Sequence record: SRR20825006_1572
Reading direction: 5' to 3' (one strand)
Length of the DNA stretch: 38,882 bases
Part shown: positions 9,499 through 16,659 of the stretch, piece by piece
How the letters are laid out: each line of letters opens with the position of its first letter
How positions within the stretch are numbered: the stretch's first letter is position 1
Position numbers and translations under genes: made by a program
The notes under the pieces: generated by a model
The model's input: the letters and a program-made list of their open reading frames with translations, nothing else
Database searches by the model: none
What the model was told of the DNA's origin: nothing

Positions 9499-11844
9499 TC
9501 AGTTTTGGATAATAAACTCAGGCGAATTCGTCATCGCCCAGATCAAATCTTCAGTGACGCGCCGCCGGTTCTCTTCGGTGGCGACGTCGTCCTTCGCATC
9601 GCTGCTTGGATTCGCTTCGTCGCTTTCGCTGGCTTCGCAAATCAGGGTTTCGGCAAAGCTTTGTTCGTCGGCGTTTGGTTTTCGCGAAAAGATGGCCAAG
9701 TACAAATCCGTGACGATGTCCGCGGGTGATGAGTCACTTTTGGCCAGTCTTGCGGCACGTCCCGAATCACTTCGGATGCGTGCGTCCAGTTCTCGTGCGT
9801 TCATCAAGTGCAGCGTCTGGGTGACCGATGAATCGGGGATGCGCTCGCAGGGTGGATCCTTGTTCTCGTCGGGTCTGCCAAACGTGTCCAAAAACGTTGA
9901 GTCGATTCGGTGCGTCCAAACTTGGTTGGCTCGCGATTCGGGGGCCAGCGCAGAAAACGATTCAGACGTTTCCGTCACATCCGCGACGGCTTGGGCCAGT
10001 ACCTCGGCTCGCAACCGATGCCGGTAGTGACGCGAGTAGTTCAACCGGTCGGCTGCGTTGGTTTCGTTGGGAACGGAACTGAGCGAGTAGACGTTGGAGA
10101 GCACGATGGTCTTGATCAAGTTCTTTTGATCGAAACCGGATTGTTGAAAGTGCTCGGCCAAGGCATCCAGCAGTGCCGGGTTGCTGGGCGGGTTGGTGCT
10201 GCGAAGATCGTCGACGGGATCGACGATGCCTCGGCCCATCAACTGTGCCCACACGCGATTGACGTGGACCTGGGCGAAGTAGTCGTTGTCCGGGGAGGTC
10301 ATCCATTCCGCGAGTGCGTCCCGTGGGTCCGAGCCCTCGGGCACGTCGGCCGTTCCGAACAGGGGCGATGGAGGCAGCACTTCGTCGGTCACCGGATGTT
10401 TGACGTCGCCCTTGGTTGAAGCGTAAACGATCTCTTCGCCGCCGGAGATTGGCGGGGACAAACCTTTGCCTTTGCGACCGACTTTGCCAAAGTAGGCGGC
10501 GAAGGAATAGAAGTCGTGCTGGCTCCACTTTTCAAACGGATGATGGTGACACTTGGCGCATTCCAATCGGACGCCGAGAAACAATTGGCTGACCAACGTG
10601 GCAACTTCATCGGGGCTGCGTCGATCACGGAACAGCGTCACCGCTCCGTTGTGCCAAGTGCTGCCTTTGGCTGTGATCAGACGTCGTGCAAATTCGTCGT
10701 AGGGAACGTTCTCTCGAAACTGCTGGCGAATCCAGTTGTCATAGTTCAGGACCGCCTTGATTCCGACGCGATAGGGATTGGGACGCAGCAGGTCAGCCCA
10801 TTGGTTGGCCCAGTGATCGATGAATTCGGGTTGATCGAGAAGACGATCGACCAACTGTTCACGCTTGTCGGAATCTTGCGAATCCAAAAATTCGCGAGCC
10901 TCCTCCATCGTCGGCGGCCGTCCGATCACATCGGTGTAAACGCGTCGTAAGAACGTTGACTCGCTGGCCGGATCCGAAACTTGGATCTGAAGTTGGTTCA
11001 GTTTTTCATAGACCAAGTCATCGATGAAATTCGCACGAGGTTGTTGCTCGTAGAATTTTTCGGTCAACGCCGTCGTTCGCGGGATGCTGACATTGGCCAC
11101 ACAAATGTGATTCACGTAGCGAGCCATCACCGCGGTCTCGCCTGGAATTGGTCCGGCAACGAGTTTTCCCGTGGCGTCGACCGATGTGATCGCGTCATCG
11201 TTGGACAGATACCCAGTCAAAGATGTGACATCTCTCTGGCTGCCATCGCTGTAGTGAGCCACCACCGCAAGCTGAGCCGTTTCGGATGGTTTGAGCAGGA
11301 ATTCGGTCTCGGCGATTTCAACGGATGTCACCGAGGGTTCGTCTGCCAGTCGACGCGGCGCACCTTGACGAATCCAGGCGGTCAGGGTGGCGTAGGCCTT
11401 CGATCCCACTTCGATTTTTCGACCACCGCCATGCGGCAATTCCGCGGTCGCTTTTTGAACCAACAGGCTGGACTCGGGAGACCGGATGGTGAGCCGTCGC
11501 CCGCGGGCCTGTCGAACAATCGCGTCGTAATCGAAGTTGGAATCAAATCCCAGCAACGAAAGTTGGAACCCGTTCTGGCCGCGTTGTTTGCCGTGGCAGG
11601 CACCTGCGTTGCAGCCATGAGCAGCCAGGATGGGTTGCACGTCCAGTTCGAAACTGACCGGCGTTTCTACGACGACAGGTGATTGCGAGCCGCTTGGCAA
11701 CGTCTGGTTGGACGCAGTCGCCGGCAATGTCGGATCCGCGAAAGCTCGGTCGAGACCGACAAAGCATTGGCAGATGACCCCCAACAACATCGCTGCTATG
11801 GCGACGTGAATGGGCGACAACCTTGGGGAAAGGCGATCAGACAT
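9499..11844 (-). CDS. DUF1549/DUF1553 domain protein with an Ig-like domain and heme-type motifs
   Basis: VSFELDVQPIL...GCNAGACHG, NFIDDLV, FLRRVYTDVIGRPPT, LECAKCHHHPFEKW, VNRVWAQLMGRGIVDPVDD. Start placed at ATG 11844 (MSDRLS) to avoid overlap with the upstream gene; the ORF extends to 11955. Confidence 0.9.
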   Translation of the reverse strand: MSDRLSPRLSPIHVAIAAMLLGVICQCFVGLDRAFADPTLPATASNQTLPSGSQSPVVVETPVSFELDVQPILAAHGCNAGACHGKQRGQNGFQLSLLGFDSNFDYDAIVRQARGRRLTIRSPESSLLVQKATAELPHGGGRKIEVGSKAYATLTAWIRQGAPRRLADEPSVTSVEIAETEFLLKPSETAQLAVVAHYSDGSQRDVTSLTGYLSNDDAITSVDATGKLVAGPIPGETAVMARYVNHICVANVSIPRTTALTEKFYEQQPRANFIDDLVYEKLNQLQIQVSDPASESTFLRRVYTDVIGRPPTMEEAREFLDSQDSDKREQLVDRLLDQPEFIDHWANQWADLLRPNPYRVGIKAVLNYDNWIRQQFRENVPYDEFARRLITAKGSTWHNGAVTLFRDRRSPDEVATLVSQLFLGVRLECAKCHHHPFEKWSQHDFYSFAAYFGKVGRKGKGLSPPISGGEEIVYASTKGDVKHPVTDEVLPPSPLFGTADVPEGSDPRDALAEWMTSPDNDYFAQVHVNRVWAQLMGRGIVDPVDDLRSTNPPSNPALLDALAEHFQQSGFDQKNLIKTIVLSNVYSLSSVPNETNAADRLNYSRHYRHRLRAEVLAQAVADVTETSESFSALAPESRANQVWTHRIDSTFLDTFGRPDENKDPPCERIPDSSVTQTLHLMNARELDARIRSDSGRAARLAKSDSSPADIVTDLYLAIFSRKPNADEQSFAETLICEASESDEANPSSDAKDDVATEENRRRVTEDLIWAMTNSPEFIIQN

Positions 11845-11914
11845 GGCGGGCGGGAGGTGGGTGGGGTCTGGGGAGGGACCCTCAGCATAGCCAATTGCGG
11901 AGCGCCGTTGGGAA

Positions 11915-12724
11915 CTAATTTTCGCGAGGCACAGGATCGACCGCGTTGGAAACATCGCAACCGTTCAACCGGAGTCGCACCAGCAGATCGTTGAGAGCCG
12001 GGCGAGCGGTTGGAACTTCGGGCAAATGGGACTGTTCGTGAGCCTCCTTCAATTGACGAACCAATCGCTCAAATTCGCTGGCATGAAAGTCAAGGTCGGC
12101 GGCATCGAGCGTTCCTTTCTCCGGGCCGGTTTGCTTGCGATCGATCAGTTCATCAATGTACGAGAGTCTCGCGGTTTGATTAAGTGTCACGAGGTTGGAC
12201 TCGACGACGCCCGCCCGCATCAAATGAATTCCAGTCAACAGCACGCGGTACACGTAGAGCAGCGGTTTGACCCGCGGCGGTGTTTCCTTGGAGAACAGTT
12301 TCCACTGAGTCGCTGCGAAACCGAGGTAGTGGTGAGCGTGATGCCGGGTGATGCAGTTCTCCGCGATCGATTTCAGTTCGTCGTGTTCCGGCGTGGTGCG
12401 AACGACCAGCGGTGAGAAGACTTGTTCGAGCACGTAACCGTTTCGTCGCAACATCAGCCCAAAGAACTTGCCAACGTCGTGTGTGACCAGGTCAATCTCA
12501 AGGCCGTCGTAAACCCCTTCTTTCTCGATGGTCAGTTCGCCATCCTCCAAACCGACAACCGTTTGCAGTGGCAGCAAGTGCACGCCGCGAAGATCAAAGT
12601 CGGAGTTGGCGGATGGGAAACCGTACAGGTGAGCTCCACTGATGGTGGCGAACAACAGCGGATGGGGTGCAGCACGGATGTGCGGCAGCATTTTGTCGTA
12701 GTCGATTGTTCGGGCGTCAGTCAT
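11915..12724 (-). CDS. RlaP/YcgL-type (PF10127-like) Pol-beta superfamily nucleotidyltransferase, copy 2
   Basis: TISGAHLYGFPSANSDFDLRGVH (G[AS]xxYG...SDxD), NGYVLEQVFSPL, HHYLGFA, KPLLYVYRVLLTG. ATG at 12724 overlaps the upstream TGA (ATGA). Confidence 0.88.
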   Translation of the reverse strand: MTDARTIDYDKMLPHIRAAPHPLLFATISGAHLYGFPSANSDFDLRGVHLLPLQTVVGLEDGELTIEKEGVYDGLEIDLVTHDVGKFFGLMLRRNGYVLEQVFSPLVVRTTPEHDELKSIAENCITRHHAHHYLGFAATQWKLFSKETPPRVKPLLYVYRVLLTGIHLMRAGVVESNLVTLNQTARLSYIDELIDRKQTGPEKGTLDAADLDFHASEFERLVRQLKEAHEQSHLPEVPTARPALNDLLVRLRLNGCDVSNAVDPVPREN

Positions 12725-13665
12725 GGAAGATTCTCTTGGATGGCTTCGCGGCGAGCATCGACCAAGAACGCGTTGATTCGTTCGTAGTCGGGACGATCGG
12801 GCAGTGGGGTGGTTTGGAAAGCGGATTCGAATTCTCGTTGCAGTTCTTTTCGCCATTCATCTGCCGCGTGGAATGGCATGTCGCCATGTTTGATCGTCAG
12901 CAAGCGGTCTCGGTGCTGTCCGACATCAACGATCATCTCGCCGTTTTGCAGAACGTGCGTTCCTGACAGCAGCAACCGAATCAGGTGCATGACGTGTTTC
13001 CACTTCACACGGCCTTGATTGCGGATGTCCGTTTGCATCTTTTTGAATTGAGAAGCGACGTAGCCTGAGAACGTTTGGAAAACGAGCTTGGATAAAAAGG
13101 ACTCACGCATCGCGAGCAAGTCTTTGCCGAGCGGTGTGACCTTTTCGACGATTGGCGAATAGAGACATTCGAGAACGTTCGGGTTCGCTTTCAAAGCCAG
13201 CACAATGAACTTCTGCAGTTCCCAGTAGACTTCCTGGGTTTGGTCGTTCTCAAGTTGTTCCGGGACACCGTAGAGCGACCAATGGAGCTCCGCCGGCGGA
13301 AGGTAGATGCCTCGTCGATCTGTGTCGGAATCTTCGTCGTCGAGCCCGTACGCTCGTGAACCGATCACGCAGCGGTAAATGACACGCTCATACAGTCCCG
13401 AGTCCATCAGCGGGGCGGTGGCATCTCGGATGGATAGATTTTTGAACTCGGACAATCGAACGAGCTGGTCGTGATGAATCGCGGCTTCGAACCCGTCGCT
13501 GAACTTGACGCGATACGCGTGGGTGCGATCGACCGGCGACCGCACGATCACGCCAACCGCACCGGCGGGATGAGCGATTCGATCATTCGTTGTCATCACA
13601 TCTTTTTGAGCGACAACCTGCGTGCCCGGTGAGTGGATCAGCGAAGGGTGCTTGGGGAGATTCAT
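12721..13665 (-). CDS. RlaP-type (PF10127-like) Pol-beta nucleotidyltransferase, copy 1, with an extra N-terminal beta-barrel-like domain
   Basis: VIGSRAYGLDDEDSDTDRRGIY, WELQKFIVLALKANPNVLECLYSP, TFSGYVASQF, KHVMHLIRLL, LPDRPDYERINAFL. Confidence 0.9.
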   Translation of the reverse strand: MNLPKHPSLIHSPGTQVVAQKDVMTTNDRIAHPAGAVGVIVRSPVDRTHAYRVKFSDGFEAAIHHDQLVRLSEFKNLSIRDATAPLMDSGLYERVIYRCVIGSRAYGLDDEDSDTDRRGIYLPPAELHWSLYGVPEQLENDQTQEVYWELQKFIVLALKANPNVLECLYSPIVEKVTPLGKDLLAMRESFLSKLVFQTFSGYVASQFKKMQTDIRNQGRVKWKHVMHLIRLLLSGTHVLQNGEMIVDVGQHRDRLLTIKHGDMPFHAADEWRKELQREFESAFQTTPLPDRPDYERINAFLVDARREAIQENLP

Positions 13666-13830
13666 CGAATTCGACTGGTGCGGTAAAAACTGGAGTGCTT
13701 GATTGTAGGTGGTGGAAAGAGTCGAGCGGTCGAAGGTTCGGTGAAGATTGGGAACGCCAACATGATGAACCTGTTCATGTCATGATGTGTCTCTTGATGT
13801 CGGAATATGACGCGTCGTTAGGAGAACAGC

Positions 13831-14637
13831 ATGACACTCAAACAGCTCGCGCAAGAAGTCCTCGACCTGATCGATGCTGGTGAGTATCGAGTCGACGAGA
13901 CGGTCGTGCGATTTGCCGAACAACAAAATCGAGCGGTGCAATCGACCCGGTTGTATCGACCGGATGAGCTCGAGTCTCTGCGAGCGGAACCCGCGAAGGT
14001 GAGCCAAGTTGTCCATGTAATTGATGGAACGACTCAGGTGGTTGCTCAGCAATTGTCAGGTGCAGGTGAACTAGCGTTGTTGAACTTCGCTTCCGCACGC
14101 AATCCGGGTGGCGGTTTTTTAAACGGTGCAAAAGCACAGGAAGAAGACCTGTGTCGATGCAGTGGTTTGTATCCCTGTTTGATCGAACACATGGAATACT
14201 ACGAAGCAAATCGAAATCAATCGTCGCTGTTGTACACCGATCATGCCATCTTCAGTCCCAAGGTTCCGTTCTTTCGAACCAGGGGCACCGGCGATCTGCT
14301 AGAGGTTCCTTTCTTCGCGTCCGTGATCACAGCACCGGCTCCGAATAGCAGACCTTTCCTGCGTGGCAATCCCAATGCGACCGAGGAGTTGGAGAGTACC
14401 TTCCTGCGGAGGTGGCGGAACGTTCTTCGAATTGCGAGGGATCAGAACGTGCGGTGTCTTCTTCTGGGGGCGTGGGGATGTGGAGCGTTCGGAGGTGACC
14501 CGTTGATGGCGTCACGCACCGCGAGGTCCGCAATTGCATCGGATGGTCGCGATATCAGCGAGATTGTTTTCGCCATTCCCGGTACCGGACGGCAGAGCAA
14601 AGCGAACTTGGACGCATTTCGCGAAATGTTCGGATGA
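13831..14637 (+). CDS. TIGR02452 / DUF2263 bacterial-type poly(ADP-ribose) glycohydrolase (macrodomain)
   Basis: PARG signature LNFASARNPGGGFLNGAKAQEEDLCR (GGG-x7-QEE), ITAPAPN, LLGAWGCGAFG. GGAG RBS upstream of the ATG. Confidence 0.92.
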   Translation: MTLKQLAQEVLDLIDAGEYRVDETVVRFAEQQNRAVQSTRLYRPDELESLRAEPAKVSQVVHVIDGTTQVVAQQLSGAGELALLNFASARNPGGGFLNGAKAQEEDLCRCSGLYPCLIEHMEYYEANRNQSSLLYTDHAIFSPKVPFFRTRGTGDLLEVPFFASVITAPAPNSRPFLRGNPNATEELESTFLRRWRNVLRIARDQNVRCLLLGAWGCGAFGGDPLMASRTARSAIASDGRDISEIVFAIPGTGRQSKANLDAFREMFG

Positions 14638-14676
14638 TGATTGGAAGATTGGCTGTGGATCGGGAGTGTGGCTTGC

Positions 14677-16659
14677 CTATCGTTTGCTCATGCTGCTTGC
14701 GATGCGGTCTCGGTCGATGCGATCAATGACTTCCATGAGTCGCGGTTTTCGGCCGTGTTTTGTTTTGAAGTCGGCCAAGATGTTTTCCCATTCCGCTTGC
14801 TGGTTGTTTTGAAACAAGAGCGTCTTGACCTTCTTGAGATGCTTTCCGACCAACGGATATGTTTTGGTGTTGGTCTGCGCAGCGACGGACAACGCTTCAC
14901 GCAGATAGATCTCGATCGCGCGTTCGGGATGAGATTTTTCAACCGACTTCGCCACCGACAAGCGATCAATGCGAGCGGAATGGAACCGCGAGTCCGATGA
15001 ATTTGCATTCGCGGTATCGTACAACCGCAACGTTTCATCTGGCGAACTGTTTTTGATCGAAAGACCGATCAGTACATCGTAGTGTGGGCCGCGGTCGTGC
15101 CTCGTTTCGCTGACAGGTTGGTCGGCGTCCTGTCCGAGTGGTGCTCGCGGCAAGGGCCAAGCCTTCGTCGCTTTTGTTCGTCGCATTTGGTTGCGGTCCA
15201 AGTCCGGTCGTTTGCCCGTTTCCAAGAACCGGCGAGCCGCGGTTTCAATGACTGCTTTGCATTTTGCTTTGTTGGATGCTTGGAGCAGCTTTTCAAACCC
15301 GTCGACCGATGGTGATTCGAAAAAGTCTTCGGCAGCGATCGCCGCGGGGATTTTCCATTCTTTCCGCTTCGATGCGAGTTCACCAATCAATTCTTGAAGG
15401 TGATGGATGATCCCACGGAATTGAAGGTCCGTTTCGCGAAGACCCCGATAGGCGAGTTCTTCTGCTTCGGCGTCGAAGCCATCGTCCATCAATTCTTTGA
15501 CCGCTCTCATGAAGCTTCCACATGTCAGCGCTTCAGCGACACTGATTTCACGAGCTTCTTCATCTCGACCACAGGCACGCAGGGCGTGAATCGCCATGCT
15601 TCCCGTTTGTTCGCGTTGGCGGTTTGGACTGACGAAACCATGCCGATCGGTCTTGGCGGGCAGAGAATGCAAGCGAACGATCAGTTCGTCGGCAACCGAT
15701 GACCAAGCCGACGTCGGCCATTTGCTTTGGAACAACTCTGCGACGGAGGCGGCCAGATCGTAGTCGTCATCGAGACTGAGATCGAACGCTACAAGCAATC
15801 TCTGCTCGTCGGAGAGTGAAGACTTTCGAATCGCTTTGGCGACCGTTTCCATACACTCGCACAGTTGACCGCAGACAGATCCATCGTCATGGCCTCTGTT
15901 GACTTGGTCCGTCCCGCGAGTCATCAGCTCCTTTCCAAGTTTGACCAGCTCGTCCGCATGCCCGGCAGCGAGCAATGTCGTCATTCGTTTTTGGAGTCCG
16001 CTGTAGTCAGGCAGTTCACCCTCACCATCCCAAGCGTCATACCACGCCTCTTCTGCGGTTAACTTTCGCATTTCTTTGTAGGCTTCCGCGAGCAATTTAT
16101 CGAAGTGGCCACTGGCGATGGTGACTTCATCTGCTAGCGTTCGTCGGATGGAGGGTTCGGCGGAACAGCATTTCATCAATCGGTCGATCAAGTTCTCTTT
16201 GGATTCATCGGCCAAATATTCGCGGATCTGTTTGTCGGTTGTGCGTTGTTTGTTGGACACCCCGGAGGATAATTTCGGAGCGGGCGTCGTGTTGTCGTCT
16301 TGCAAGTGTTCAAACCGAACGTCGGTGTCAGAGATGCTCGGTGGGCGTTTGCCTGCTTCACAATCGGCGATCATTTTCAACACCGTCGCAACGCCATGCT
16401 TGCAGTCGTACCCAACCGGGCAAGAGCAATAGGAACTCAGTTGCACACCAGAACGCTTTTTGGTGTTGAGCGAGACCCGAGTGATGTAGGACTCGGTTCC
16501 TTGTACGGTGGCGATGATCGACCCATCACCGCAGAGAACCAGTTTGCGAACTCGACCCTGTTTTTGATAATCTTCGCCGCGCTGAATCGTTCGGCTTCCG
16601 GTCCAGCTTTCGAGCGTGGACCAGGTCAAGGTTTGCCACGCTTTGACGCTCACCGCCAT
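14677..16659 (-). CDS. SWIM zinc-finger protein with a helical-repeat C-terminus
   Basis: RGEDYQKQGRV...ATVQGTESY...CSCPVGYDCKHGVA (CxC-xn-CxH), followed by a long alpha-helical region. AAGGA upstream of the ATG. Confidence 0.88.
   Translation of the reverse strand: MAVSVKAWQTLTWSTLESWTGSRTIQRGEDYQKQGRVRKLVLCGDGSIIATVQGTESYITRVSLNTKKRSGVQLSSYCSCPVGYDCKHGVATVLKMIADCEAGKRPPSISDTDVRFEHLQDDNTTPAPKLSSGVSNKQRTTDKQIREYLADESKENLIDRLMKCCSAEPSIRRTLADEVTIASGHFDKLLAEAYKEMRKLTAEEAWYDAWDGEGELPDYSGLQKRMTTLLAAGHADELVKLGKELMTRGTDQVNRGHDDGSVCGQLCECMETVAKAIRKSSLSDEQRLLVAFDLSLDDDYDLAASVAELFQSKWPTSAWSSVADELIVRLHSLPAKTDRHGFVSPNRQREQTGSMAIHALRACGRDEEAREISVAEALTCGSFMRAVKELMDDGFDAEAEELAYRGLRETDLQFRGIIHHLQELIGELASKRKEWKIPAAIAAEDFFESPSVDGFEKLLQASNKAKCKAVIETAARRFLETGKRPDLDRNQMRRTKATKAWPLPRAPLGQDADQPVSETRHDRGPHYDVLIGLSIKNSSPDETLRLYDTANANSSDSRFHSARIDRLSVAKSVEKSHPERAIEIYLREALSVAAQTNTKTYPLVGKHLKKVKTLLFQNNQQAEWENILADFKTKHGRKPRLMEVIDRIDRDRIASSMSKR

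Follow-up and report, generated by a model that had tools for sequence, protein, structure and literature searches.

The locus lies within a window of 38,882 nucleotides (the whole stretch of DNA that was analysed) and consists of two tandem genes encoding RlaP-family nucleotidyltransferases and a divergent gene encoding a PARG. The first gene of the pair, RlaP-B (12721..13665, minus strand), encodes a protein of 314 aa and the second, RlaP-A (11915..12724, minus strand), a protein of 269 aa. Both proteins matched PF10127 (191.3 bits, E 3e-56 for RlaP-B and 197.8 bits, E 3.3e-58 for RlaP-A; cut-off 23) and shared 26% identity. The RlaP-A ATG, at position 12724, overlaps the RlaP-B TGA stop as ATGA; the initial annotation, which had described two dissimilar nucleotidyltransferase genes joined in this manner, was accurate on this point. 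The longest RlaP-A ORF begins further up, at 12856; the 269-aa reading gives a clean translation, and relatives align from residue 1.

The PARG gene (13831..14637, plus strand; 268 aa) is separated from RlaP-B by a divergent intergenic region whose coordinates (13666..13830) confirmed the 165 bp originally given. The protein was characterised by matches to PF10021 (159 bits, cut-off 23.5; E 1.4e-46) and TIGR02452 (369 bits, cut-off 50; E 1.4e-110), as well as to the solved PARG of Thermomonospora curvata (3sig, E 2.1e-47) and to PARG structures of D. radiodurans (5zda and others, E ~1e-46). Its segment GGGFLNGAKAQEE aligned to GGGFLSGAHAQEE of 3sig, in agreement with the earlier description of a bacterial-type PARG with an intact GGG-x7-QEE motif; this alignment matches the catalytic signature of PARG, GGG-X6-8-QEE.

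A Pfam scan of the 24 window ORFs detected no RNA ligase, Tpt1/KptA, NUDIX, or ADP-ribosyltransferase family, as the initial annotation had stated, and neither Pnkp nor Hen1. When RlaP-A, RlaP-B, and PARG were compared with the 5027 models of PADLOC-DB 2.0, no family was matched at E values up to 0.01. A neighbouring SWIM protein matched PDC-S62 and the DpdE N-terminus in the same database. A promoter and terminator scan of positions 11600-14900 gave nothing beyond shuffled expectation.

The RlaP-A and RlaP-B proteins

The G[SA]xxYG...SDxD motifs, previously described as intact in both transferases, correspond to G30-A-H-L-Y-G35 and S41-D42-F-D44 in RlaP-A, and to G102-S-R-A-Y-G107 and S113-D114-T-D116 in RlaP-B. 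The G, S-D, and D positions were invariant in 55 out of 55 orthologues of each protein; in RlaP-A, G-A (G30-A31) replaces the canonical G-S ahead of the DxD. Downstream of the DxD, acidic residues were also invariant (E76, D78, and D83 in RlaP-A; E145 and E149 in RlaP-B), including in the natural fusions described below. From their sequences, both proteins look catalytically intact and translationally coupled.

The AlphaFold model of RlaP-B (mean pLDDT 84.8) was characterised, from the N- to the C-terminus, by a small beta-barrel (residues ~10-70), a low-confidence linker (residues 78-88), and an RlaP nucleotidyltransferase followed by a helical domain (residues ~90-310), which carries G102-S103 and D114/D116. 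The solved folds nearest to this model were kanamycin nucleotidyltransferase (6un8, E 3.8e-5) and Hailong HalB (9dbh, E 1.8e-4), and a phmmer search of RlaP-A and RlaP-B against PDB sequences found no nucleotidyltransferase relative.

The N-terminal domain of RlaP-B (13441..13665, minus strand; approximately residues 1-75, with strands at 16-70 in the model) had no Pfam match. Its fold weakly resembled SH3, Tudor, and PWWP domains (e.g., 8h43, target-normalised TM 0.68, E 0.015), and a protein Atlas search using the N-terminal 90 residues retrieved RlaP clusters only, with scores of 0.79 or less. Orthologues with as little as 61% identity retained the domain, as did those of Deinococcus. It was absent from RlaP-A and from phage RlaPs, the phage homologues matching only residues ~87-310. 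We regard this beta-barrel as a candidate docking or RNA-binding part. Co-folding of RlaP-B and RlaP-A from 55-row alignments gave a score of 0.13 (mark 0.32), which speaks neither for nor against binding.

Conservation and gene context of the RlaP pair

RlaP-A followed RlaP-B on the same strand in 93 of the 96 unique loci, so the tandem arrangement is not due to chance, and the start and stop codons overlapped by 4 nt in 51 of these 93 pairs. Among 61 related genomes, RlaP was present in 23 and PARG in 8; 25 tandem pairs were found across 21 genomes, in the order B then A every time. Other neighbour clusters reached at most 5 of 27 sources (26 loci and the window) or at most 14 of 80 loci, with crude gene calls (a greedy choice of the longest ORFs); the 80 loci are those most similar to the window among at least 569 relatives and do not sample these evenly.

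The two genes were also found fused. Twelve long proteins were present among the best 150 representatives, 10 of which carried two RlaP domains, and several of these B-A fusions occurred on 3-7 contigs each, from independent sources. In one fusion (P0007), the N-terminal half was 50% identical to RlaP-B, N-terminal domain included (E 3e-96), and the C-terminal half was 49% identical to RlaP-A (E 1e-71); its model had a mean pLDDT of 84.1 and a pTM of 0.70. The motif residues of both RlaP-A and RlaP-B were invariant over 13 fusion sequences. Such sequences favour a joint action of the two paralogues, for which the initial annotation had suggested a heterodimer. In addition, one genome (G002) contained three copies, and the pair was also found on an element that encodes a serine recombinase, ParB/RepB, and an SF1 helicase. 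Overall, the analysis points to a two-paralogue RlaP form that is distinct from the characterised single-gene RlaPs and widespread, as an orphan pair, in Pirellulaceae.

Among the neighbours of the pair, Hen1, Pnkp, and Thg1-like genes recur. In 15 of the 96 loci, the pair was flanked by at least one of Hen1, Pnkp, and an HD-Pnk-like kinase. Hen1 was present on the same strand in 14 loci; for Pnkp, the count was 10, with one more at the end of a contig. All 15 were among the 49 loci with an RlaP-B of at most 71% identity. In the clade of the window, none of the 47 loci above 71% had a ligase or Hen1 nearby; a repair role there is extrapolated from more distant orthologues. In one Pfam-verified operon (L011), the order was Hen1-B-A-AAA_33 kinase-Thg1-Pnkp. 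Comparable arrangements were found in RefSeq annotations of Deinococcus, namely Hen1-NTase-NTase-polynucleotide kinase-phosphatase on the P2 plasmid of D. gobiensis and AAA ATPase-Thg1...Hen1-NTase-NTase in D. taeanensis; the Deinococcus RlaP-B proteins were 54-56% identical, from residue 4 or 14 to residue 310.

Hen1 was present in 41 of 401 Planctomycetota genomes. From 38 Hen1 loci sampled evenly across this phylum, 7 contained both B and A, 1 contained A only, 1 contained a B fragment, and 29 had neither. PNKP_ligase and Hen1_L had no match in G001, the nearest relative genome examined. RtcB was found in 53 of the 61 relatives, including two copies in G001, so that a ligase is available in trans; at this frequency, its phyletic distribution is uninformative.

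Relationship between PARG and the pair

PARG adjoins the pair in one lineage but is no constant part of the module. A divergent PARG was located within 400 bp of RlaP-B in 7 of the 96 loci, all inside one 15-row subclade in which the other 8 rows had none, and any PARG occurred within 9 kb of the pair in only 9 loci. Two loci without PARG shared their downstream flank with a PARG-linked sister: L003 with the window and L028 with L029. PARG was thus not the usual partner of the pair, so that the interpretation in the initial annotation is not supported as stated, and the neighbourhood analysis showed that the adjacency is not kept beyond close relatives. PARG was present in 22 of the 401 genomes of the phylum, and 20 PARG loci sampled across it contained no RlaP match in six frames, with KptA found in 5 of the 20.

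The seven divergent PARGs were monophyletic and tracked the RlaP-B tree (a quick tree that was midpoint-rooted and for which SH-aLRT values were the only support). The downstream flanks of these seven loci differed (PSCyt/DUF1501, EF-Tu, and others). In L029 and L030, an RNase_T-family exonuclease followed PARG. The alignment of the seven PARG-RlaP-B spacers revealed two sequence groups having little in common besides a short word near the PARG start, and no clear shared operator or control element.

In two other loci of the 96 (L079 and L081), the pair abutted a Tpt1/KptA-Macro-NUDIX-ARH-PARG-isochorismatase cluster, with NADAR also present in L079. The PARG of this cluster falls in a different PARG clade, which indicates a second, independent juxtaposition. 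KptA and the pair are about 0.9 Mb apart in G001; within the genus, a phyletic linkage between PARG and KptA is uninformative, as KptA was present in 22 of 23 genomes.

Possible roles of the locus

The RlaP family was reportedly named by Burroughs and Aravind in 2016. In the literature that we searched, we found no description of the two-paralogue pair. The claim that the pair is biochemically uncharacterised held for the two-paralogue form but not for single RlaPs of RtcB/RtcA operons: PfRlaP and PaRlaP from Pseudomonas were the subject of a 2025 preprint by Carruthers, Fatma, and Huang (10.64898/2025.12.29.696909). According to this preprint, these enzymes extend RNA 3'-OH ends by 1-2 NMP, with a preference for damaged RNAs. 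Its Supplementary Fig. S2 reportedly shows RlaP with 5'-phosphate ligases, which may bear on the two-paralogue form. Their products end in a 3'-OH, whereas RtcB needs a 3'-phosphate, a mismatch raised by the authors themselves. As the PfRlaP structure is described there as a single chain with its own cleft, a heteromer would not be required.

The proposed RNA-repair role of the PF10127 pair fits both this published activity and the Hen1, Pnkp, and Thg1 contexts of distant relatives. Since the pair occurs in RNA-repair operons of related bacteria and PARG accompanies it in one small lineage only, the most likely explanation, which we consider probable, is an orphaned two-paralogue RlaP module of RNA 3'-end repair rather than a three-gene system dedicated to ADP-ribose. 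Judging from their characterised single-gene homologues, the subunits would each extend the 3'-OH end of an RNA by one or a few NMPs, and this addition would restore nucleotides lost to ribotoxin cleavage and trimming, ahead of resealing by a ligase. RlaP-B and RlaP-A would be expressed as a unit and would probably form one complex or act on one substrate. In more distant relatives and in Deinococcus, Hen1 and Pnkp lie on either side of the pair, which is often accompanied by a small kinase and a Thg1-like 5'-end repair polymerase. In the genome of the window, it would be orphaned, as neither PNKP_ligase nor Hen1 was found in G001, and would need a ligase encoded elsewhere; G001 has two RtcB genes. 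PARG, for its part, would be a separate damage-reversal enzyme that was captured beside the pair once in one Pirellulaceae subclade and patchily co-inherited. The two may be allies against RNA-targeting toxins without forming an obligate system, and their cooperation is possible as a lineage-restricted one. The analysis shows the family membership of the two proteins, the integrity of their motifs, and the conservation, fusions, and gene contexts of the pair; its enzymatic activity, complex formation, and substrate are inferred, as is any link to PARG. Two observations count against this explanation: the G-A for G-S in RlaP-A, and the 3'-OH product set against the 3'-phosphate needed by RtcB in a genome such as G001 without PNKP_ligase. 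The patchy distribution, the multiple copies, and the mobile-element carriage of the pair would equally suit a conflict system.

An alternative, which develops the proposal of the initial annotation, is a dedicated three-gene module of PARG and the RlaP pair that counters ADP-ribosylating toxins or phage enzymes. In this module, PARG would take ADP-ribose off RNA or DNA ends, or off the 2'-OH, after which the pair would rebuild or re-tailor the end. The first step is in line with published work: bacterial PARGs are described as reversing RNA ADP-ribosylation at the 2'-OH and at phosphate ends and as conferring immunity against the RNA ADP-ribosyltransferase RhsP2 (Lu et al. 2025, PMC11833690). 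The same source places the PARG of D. radiodurans in an operon with end-repair genes (DRB0100 ligase, DRB0099 PARG, and DRB0098 HD-Pnk), which is consistent with such a module, as are the seven divergent PARGs that remain beside RlaP-B despite differing flanks and track its tree, and the exonuclease that follows PARG in L029 and L030. Moreover, the juxtaposition in L079 and L081 involves a PARG of another clade and, PARG being rare (22 of 401 genomes), we roughly estimate that two independent adjacencies are unlikely to have arisen by chance. However, a three-gene module is difficult to reconcile with a PARG lying within 9 kb in so few loci, with its absence from eight rows of its own subclade and from the sister loci L003 and L028, with the excess of RlaP over PARG among the 61 relatives, with phylum-wide PARG loci that contain KptA in some cases and RlaP in none, or with a spacer lacking a clearly conserved shared control element. 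The proposal is thus weakened by the lineage-restricted adjacency, though not abolished, as the second juxtaposition with a Tpt1/KptA-PARG cluster keeps it alive; overall, we regard it as unlikely. A narrower version, confined to the Rhodopirellula/Stieleria-type subclade, seems doubtful to us: there, the three genes would act as one counter-toxin RNA-restoration module, with ADP-ribose on RNA 2'-OH or terminal phosphates (originating from an RNA-targeting ADP-ribosyltransferase or a Tpt1/KptA-type enzyme) removed by PARG, the trimmed 3' end rebuilt by a two-subunit RlaP, and the RNA resealed by a ligase from elsewhere. If true, this would be the first case of coupled RNA de-ADP-ribosylation and nucleotide restoration.

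Nucleotidyltransferase toxins of the AbiEii/MenT type block tRNA 3' ends, and the pair could itself be a conflict system, either a toxin-antitoxin or abortive-infection blocker of this kind or a HalB-like signal maker. Its patchy distribution (23 of 61 relatives), its copy number of up to three per genome, its presence on the recombinase-bearing element noted above, and the very short RlaP-B branches between genera, which suggest transfer, all agree with this reading, as does the similarity to HalB (9dbh, E 1.8e-4, query-normalised TM 0.34); the addition of NMP to RNA 3' ends could also be toxic as well as restorative. We nevertheless judge it very unlikely, since the 5027 PADLOC models gave no match to either RlaP protein, the neighbour clusters of the 27 sources and 80 loci revealed no conserved partner of the effector or channel type, both paralogues keep their catalytic motifs, unlike an enzyme-plus-inhibitor pattern, and in two phyla Hen1 and Pnkp enclose the pair, together with Thg1-like genes. 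That RlaP-A and RlaP-B are small-molecule nucleotidyltransferases, such as ANT(4')-like aminoglycoside modifiers, which would make the RNA-repair label wrong, appears extremely improbable. The best solved match of the RlaP-B model was indeed the ANT(4') kanamycin nucleotidyltransferase 6un8, but with a sequence identity to ANT of ~10% and a TM-score of ~0.32-0.38; in addition, phmmer found no nucleotidyltransferase relative in the PDB, Pfam places both proteins in RlaP with E values of 1e-56 or better, and the gene context in L011 and on Deinococcus plasmids is that of RNA repair.

Returning to the orphaned RNA 3'-end repair module, RlaP activity has so far been assigned only to single-gene forms in RtcB operons, and the locus points to a two-paralogue form, found in Hen1-Pnkp-Thg1 operons in two phyla and as orphan pairs in Pirellulaceae, where mobile elements sometimes carry it. 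Should its subunits differ in nucleotide or RNA specificity, this form would reveal how the loss of more than one nucleotide to a ribotoxin is made good in the cell. Moreover, the pairing with PARG or ADP-ribose genes, which is lineage-restricted yet arose twice independently, offers a testable place for a coupling between RNA de-ADP-ribosylation and end repair.

Compared with known systems, the pair abuts Tpt1/KptA-Macro-NUDIX-ARH-PARG clusters (NAD/ADP-ribose processing) in L079 and L081, whereas the window contains no such cluster. With the ligase-PARG-HD-Pnk operon of D. radiodurans, the locus shares a bacterial-type PARG beside nucleic-acid end-repair enzymes; here, however, PARG is divergent, has no adjoining ligase or kinase, and is linked to the pair in one subclade only. 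With the single RlaPs of RtcB/RtcA operons, it shares PF10127, a nucleotidyltransferase followed by a C-terminal helical domain, the G[SA] and DxD motifs, and, among relatives of the pair, linkage to an RNA ligase. It differs from them by the presence of two paralogues, 26% identical, in a fixed order, often with a 4-nt overlap and sometimes fused, by the extra N-terminal beta-barrel of RlaP-B, and by the lack of a ligase near the pair in the window; in its relatives, the partner ligase is Pnkp (with Hen1), not RtcB. Finally, bacterial Pnkp-Hen1 is described as an RNA repair system (PMC3675462, PMC4411300). Although 29 of the 38 sampled Hen1 loci had no RlaP, and both Hen1 and Pnkp are missing from the window and from G001, the pair is part of Hen1-Pnkp loci or adjacent to them in 14 of the 96 loci and on Deinococcus plasmids, sometimes together with a Thg1-like gene and a small kinase.

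Gene organization around the RlaP pair

The window carries two adjacent genes for PF10127 nucleotidyltransferases (NTases) on the minus strand, RlaP-B (12721-13665; 314 aa; PF10127 E 3e-56) followed by RlaP-A (11915-12724; 269 aa; E 3.3e-58), whose products share only 26% identity. The start ATG of RlaP-A at 12724 overlaps the TGA stop of RlaP-B, forming an ATGA; the longest RlaP-A ORF begins at 12856, yet orthologue alignments begin at the 12724 start. The motif residues of RlaP-B (G102-S103 and D114/D116) and of RlaP-A (G30-A31 and D42/D44) were invariant in alignments of the respective orthologues (55 out of 55 in each case). A divergent spacer of 165 bp separates RlaP-B from a PARG gene on the plus strand (13831-14637; 268 aa; PF10021 E 1.4e-46; TIGR02452 E 1.4e-110). 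Its product matched the solved PARGs of T. curvata and D. radiodurans (E about 1e-47), with the GGG-x7-QEE motif aligned to theirs. A Pfam scan of the 24 window ORFs detected no ligase, Tpt1/KptA, NUDIX or ADP-ribosyltransferase; the surroundings consisted of ordinary planctomycete genes (PSCyt/PSD1, DUF1501, sulfatases, dehydrogenases). The initial annotation had described the same arrangement of coupled, motif-intact genes, divergent PARG and missing partner enzymes, and was borne out on each of these points.

Downstream of RlaP-A, the longest ORF of a PSCyt2/PSD1 gene (9499-11955, minus strand) shares 41 bases with the end of RlaP-A (within 11844-11955). The true start of this gene is probably further downstream, so that it would lie close to RlaP-A on the same strand and the two might be co-transcribed. 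Three genes downstream of the pair are common to the window and the comparison loci L001, L002, and L003. Directly after PARG, and convergent with it, lies a gene for a 660-aa SWIM zinc-finger protein (14677-16659, minus strand), of which the N-terminal 180 residues or so match the PADLOC candidate defence family PDC-S62 (E 8.8e-22), and also the DpdE N-terminus. This gene adjoins PARG in the window and L001 only.

Conservation and natural fusion of the pair

PF10127 was present in 23 of the 61 related genomes, 21 of which contained tandem pairs (25 pairs in total, with three copies in genome G002 and two each in G014 and G015), and the profile-truncated copy (B) always preceded the full-profile copy (A). 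A scan of species-representative genomes with the B alignment then gave at least 569 relatives, of which the top 80 by similarity were retained, a set biased towards window-like sequences (B identity 61-86%) and belonging to Planctomycetota wherever record titles name a phylum. Removal of 10 duplicates and of one locus that lacked B left 96 unique loci, including the window. In 93 of these, B was followed by A in the same orientation; the other three were a short contig, a contig end, and L104. The start of A and the stop of B overlapped by 4 nt in 51 of the 93 pairs (43 ATGA, 8 GTGA). Neighbouring genes, called crudely as the longest ORFs in a greedy selection, were clustered by BLAST; apart from the pair itself, none was common to more than 5 of 27 sources (26 loci and the window) or more than 14 of the 80 loci. 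The conserved unit is the B-A pair.

RlaP-B had about 75 extra N-terminal residues in every case, for which the structure model shows a small beta barrel that weakly matches Tudor, SH3 and PWWP folds; this domain is missing from RlaP-A and from phage RlaPs. Several Hen1-Pnkp-linked loci had a conserved ORF of about 125 aa without Pfam match between B and A (L100:9921-10292; also L087, L095, L105, L129, and L153), which may be a third component. A glyoxalase-fold gene took this place in L079 and L092, and an R2K ATP-grasp gene in L088. Just upstream of B, in the position occupied by PARG in the window, a divergent gene for a PEMT-like membrane methyltransferase (about 310-340 aa, weak PF04191 match) was observed in L040, L043, L044/L025, L055, and L067. 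Moreover, in G014 and G002 the pair was found on a repeated element with up to three copies per genome (L008, L017, L018, L019), which carries genes for a serine recombinase, two ParB/RepB proteins, and an SF1 helicase containing an RNase H-like domain, as well as an AlkZ-related gene in convergent orientation to A. Horizontal transfer is also suggested by the B tree, in which some branches between different genera are very short.

When B was searched against 1.84 billion representative proteins, 7643 relatives were returned at E <= 0.001 (312 at E <= 1e-30), and 10 of the 12 long proteins taken from the best 150 matches contained two RlaP domains according to Pfam. The N-terminal half of one of them (P0007), N-terminal domain included, shared 50% identity with B (E 3e-96), and its C-terminal half 49% with A (E 1e-71); the C-terminal half of another (P0074) shared 36% identity with A (E 8e-41). 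Several fusions were found repeatedly, on 3-7 contigs each from different sources, and the motif residues of both halves were invariant in 13 fusion sequences. These Rosetta-stone fusions, in B-to-A order, are the best evidence that A and B are likely to act together.

RNA-repair genes near the pair

Local profile searches detected Hen1 on the strand of the pair in 14 of the 96 loci, Pnkp in 10 (and in one more at a contig end), and an HD+kinase protein in 3, with at least one of the three in 15 loci. All 15 were among the 49 loci whose B is at most 71% identical to that of the window (0 of the 47 closer loci). One Pfam-verified example was an operon in G048 (L011) with the order Hen1, B, A, small AAA_33 kinase, Thg1-like, Pnkp. 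Hen1_L was present in 41 of 401 Planctomycetota genomes and was not found in G001, the closest genome used for comparison (67% of sampled words common with the window). An even Hen1-side sample of 38 loci, leaving out three genomes with partial matches only, agreed with the B-side counts: B and A in 7, A only in 1, a B fragment in 1, and neither in 29.

B was also found, with its N-terminal domain, on three Deinococcus plasmids (54-56% identity). In RefSeq annotation, D. gobiensis plasmid P2 encodes, in this order, Hen1, two nucleotidyltransferases and a polynucleotide kinase-phosphatase, with 4-nt overlaps, and D. taeanensis has AAA ATPase and Thg1, then Hen1 and two NTases. Directly after the D. 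gobiensis operon, an AbiEi antitoxin/AbiEii nucleotidyltransferase toxin pair and IS3 transposase genes are annotated (L165:13786-15160). Since the RNA-repair loci occupied the deeper branches of a quick, midpoint-rooted B tree, a Hen1-Pnkp context ancestral for the pair would fit, although this is not proof.

PARG adjacency and interpretation

PARG occurred anywhere in 8 of the 61 related genomes, and adjoined only two of the 25 pairs of the first set (G001 and G012). Among the 96 loci, seven had a divergent PARG within 400 bp of B (the window, L001, L002, L029, L030, L032, and L045). Because these seven fall within one supported 15-row clade of the B tree, with eight rows lacking PARG, and their PARGs are themselves monophyletic, a single capture followed by losses would fit. 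PARG was missing from sister loci with matching downstream flanks, namely L003 (PSCyt/DUF1501 genes, as in the window) and L028 (EF-Tu flank, as in L029). From the PARG side, PF10021 was detected in 22 of the 401 Planctomycetota genomes; 20 loci were sampled, leaving out G001 (the window's near twin) and G240 (weak partial match), and a six-frame search of about 9 kb on each side gave no RlaP-A or RlaP-B match in any of them. Tpt1/KptA was present in 5 of the 20. An RNase_T-family 3'-5' exonuclease gene (187 aa) followed PARG on the same strand in L029:7424-7984 and L030:7205-7768, and was also near pairs without PARG in L021/L037 and L047 (the latter with an ARH gene nearby).

A second juxtaposition was observed in Adhaeretor mobilis (L081:12416-18651) and a Bythopirellula genome (L079:12044-18637), where a conserved cluster in convergent orientation comes after the pair and encodes Tpt1/KptA, Macro, NUDIX, a 499-aa protein, an ADP-ribosylglycohydrolase, PARG, an isochorismatase, and a nucleoside deoxyribosyltransferase-like protein, with NADAR and a second ARH in L079. 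This PARG belongs to a different clade, alongside KptA-linked PARGs, and the juxtaposition is independent of the window-type one. The 499-aa protein and a 292-308-aa protein encoded just after RlaP-A matched no Pfam family. Parts of this cluster recurred around PARG at other places in the phylum, in L108, L112, L118, L121, and L125; in L118 the PARG match (G410:C79:314538-314981, same-family genome), adjoined by KptA and isochorismatase, is split into two ORFs by an in-frame TGA and may be a pseudogene.

Bacterial PARGs, according to passages of Lu et al. 2025 (PMC11833690), reverse 2'-OH RNA ADP-ribosylation by RhsP2 and protect cells from this toxin; the same source points out a ligase-PARG-HD-Pnk operon in D. 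radiodurans. Because PARG is rare, its two independent adjacencies to the pair would, on a rough estimate, exceed chance expectation, which speaks for a dedicated system of PARG and both RlaPs; we nevertheless consider this rather unlikely, as adjacency of either kind concerns only 9 of the 96 loci and the PARG-side sample contained no RlaP. The initial proposal of such an ADP-ribose repair or conflict system is partly supported, with an RNA-repair context that fits (15/96 loci and the Deinococcus plasmids) and a dedicated PARG partnership that is weakened (7/96 loci, one clade; 0/20 from the PARG side). A stand-alone conflict or toxin-antitoxin-like NTase system, for which the patchy, multi-copy and element-borne distribution speaks, is improbable given the absence of PADLOC matches for either RlaP, and a small-molecule transferase, suggested solely by an ANT(4') fold match, is very improbable.

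Judging from sequence and gene context, the pair is probably an RNA-repair module made up of two RlaPs, as separate or fused proteins. What was observed is the family, the intact motifs in both paralogues, the fixed order, the frequent translational coupling, the fusions, and Hen1-Pnkp(-Thg1) operons in two phyla. The pair would form a two-subunit enzyme restoring nucleotides at RNA 3' ends, with two active sites that may differ in specificity or act sequentially, and the barrel domain of B could dock RNA or a partner. The pair would here be orphaned from its ligase and depend on enzymes from other loci of the genome; in G001, two RtcB genes, one full-length KptA gene and a second, partial KptA match are all far from the pair. 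We regard the window PARG as most likely a distinct enzyme for damage reversal that was captured once, with a functional alliance plausible but optional.

A preprint (Carruthers, Fatma and Huang, 10.64898/2025.12.29.696909) reports the addition of one or two NMPs to RNA 3'-OH ends by two RlaPs of Pseudomonas, both encoded in RtcB operons and both preferring damaged RNAs, and proposes that RlaPs put back nucleotides taken by 'smart' ribotoxins. It also mentions RlaP occurrence with 5'-phosphate ligases, and points out that the 3'-OH product is mismatched with RtcB. The prediction on RlaP by Burroughs and Aravind (2016) is restated in passages of PMC7824862 and PMC6514570. Our literature search, whose scope did not include that founding paper, found no description of a two-paralogue RlaP or an RlaP-PARG link. 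The locus is well suited to experiments on the need for two RlaPs, and on a possible coupling of RNA de-ADP-ribosylation with end repair. The paired RlaP module is not categorically new; here, it is orphaned beside a lineage-specific PARG.
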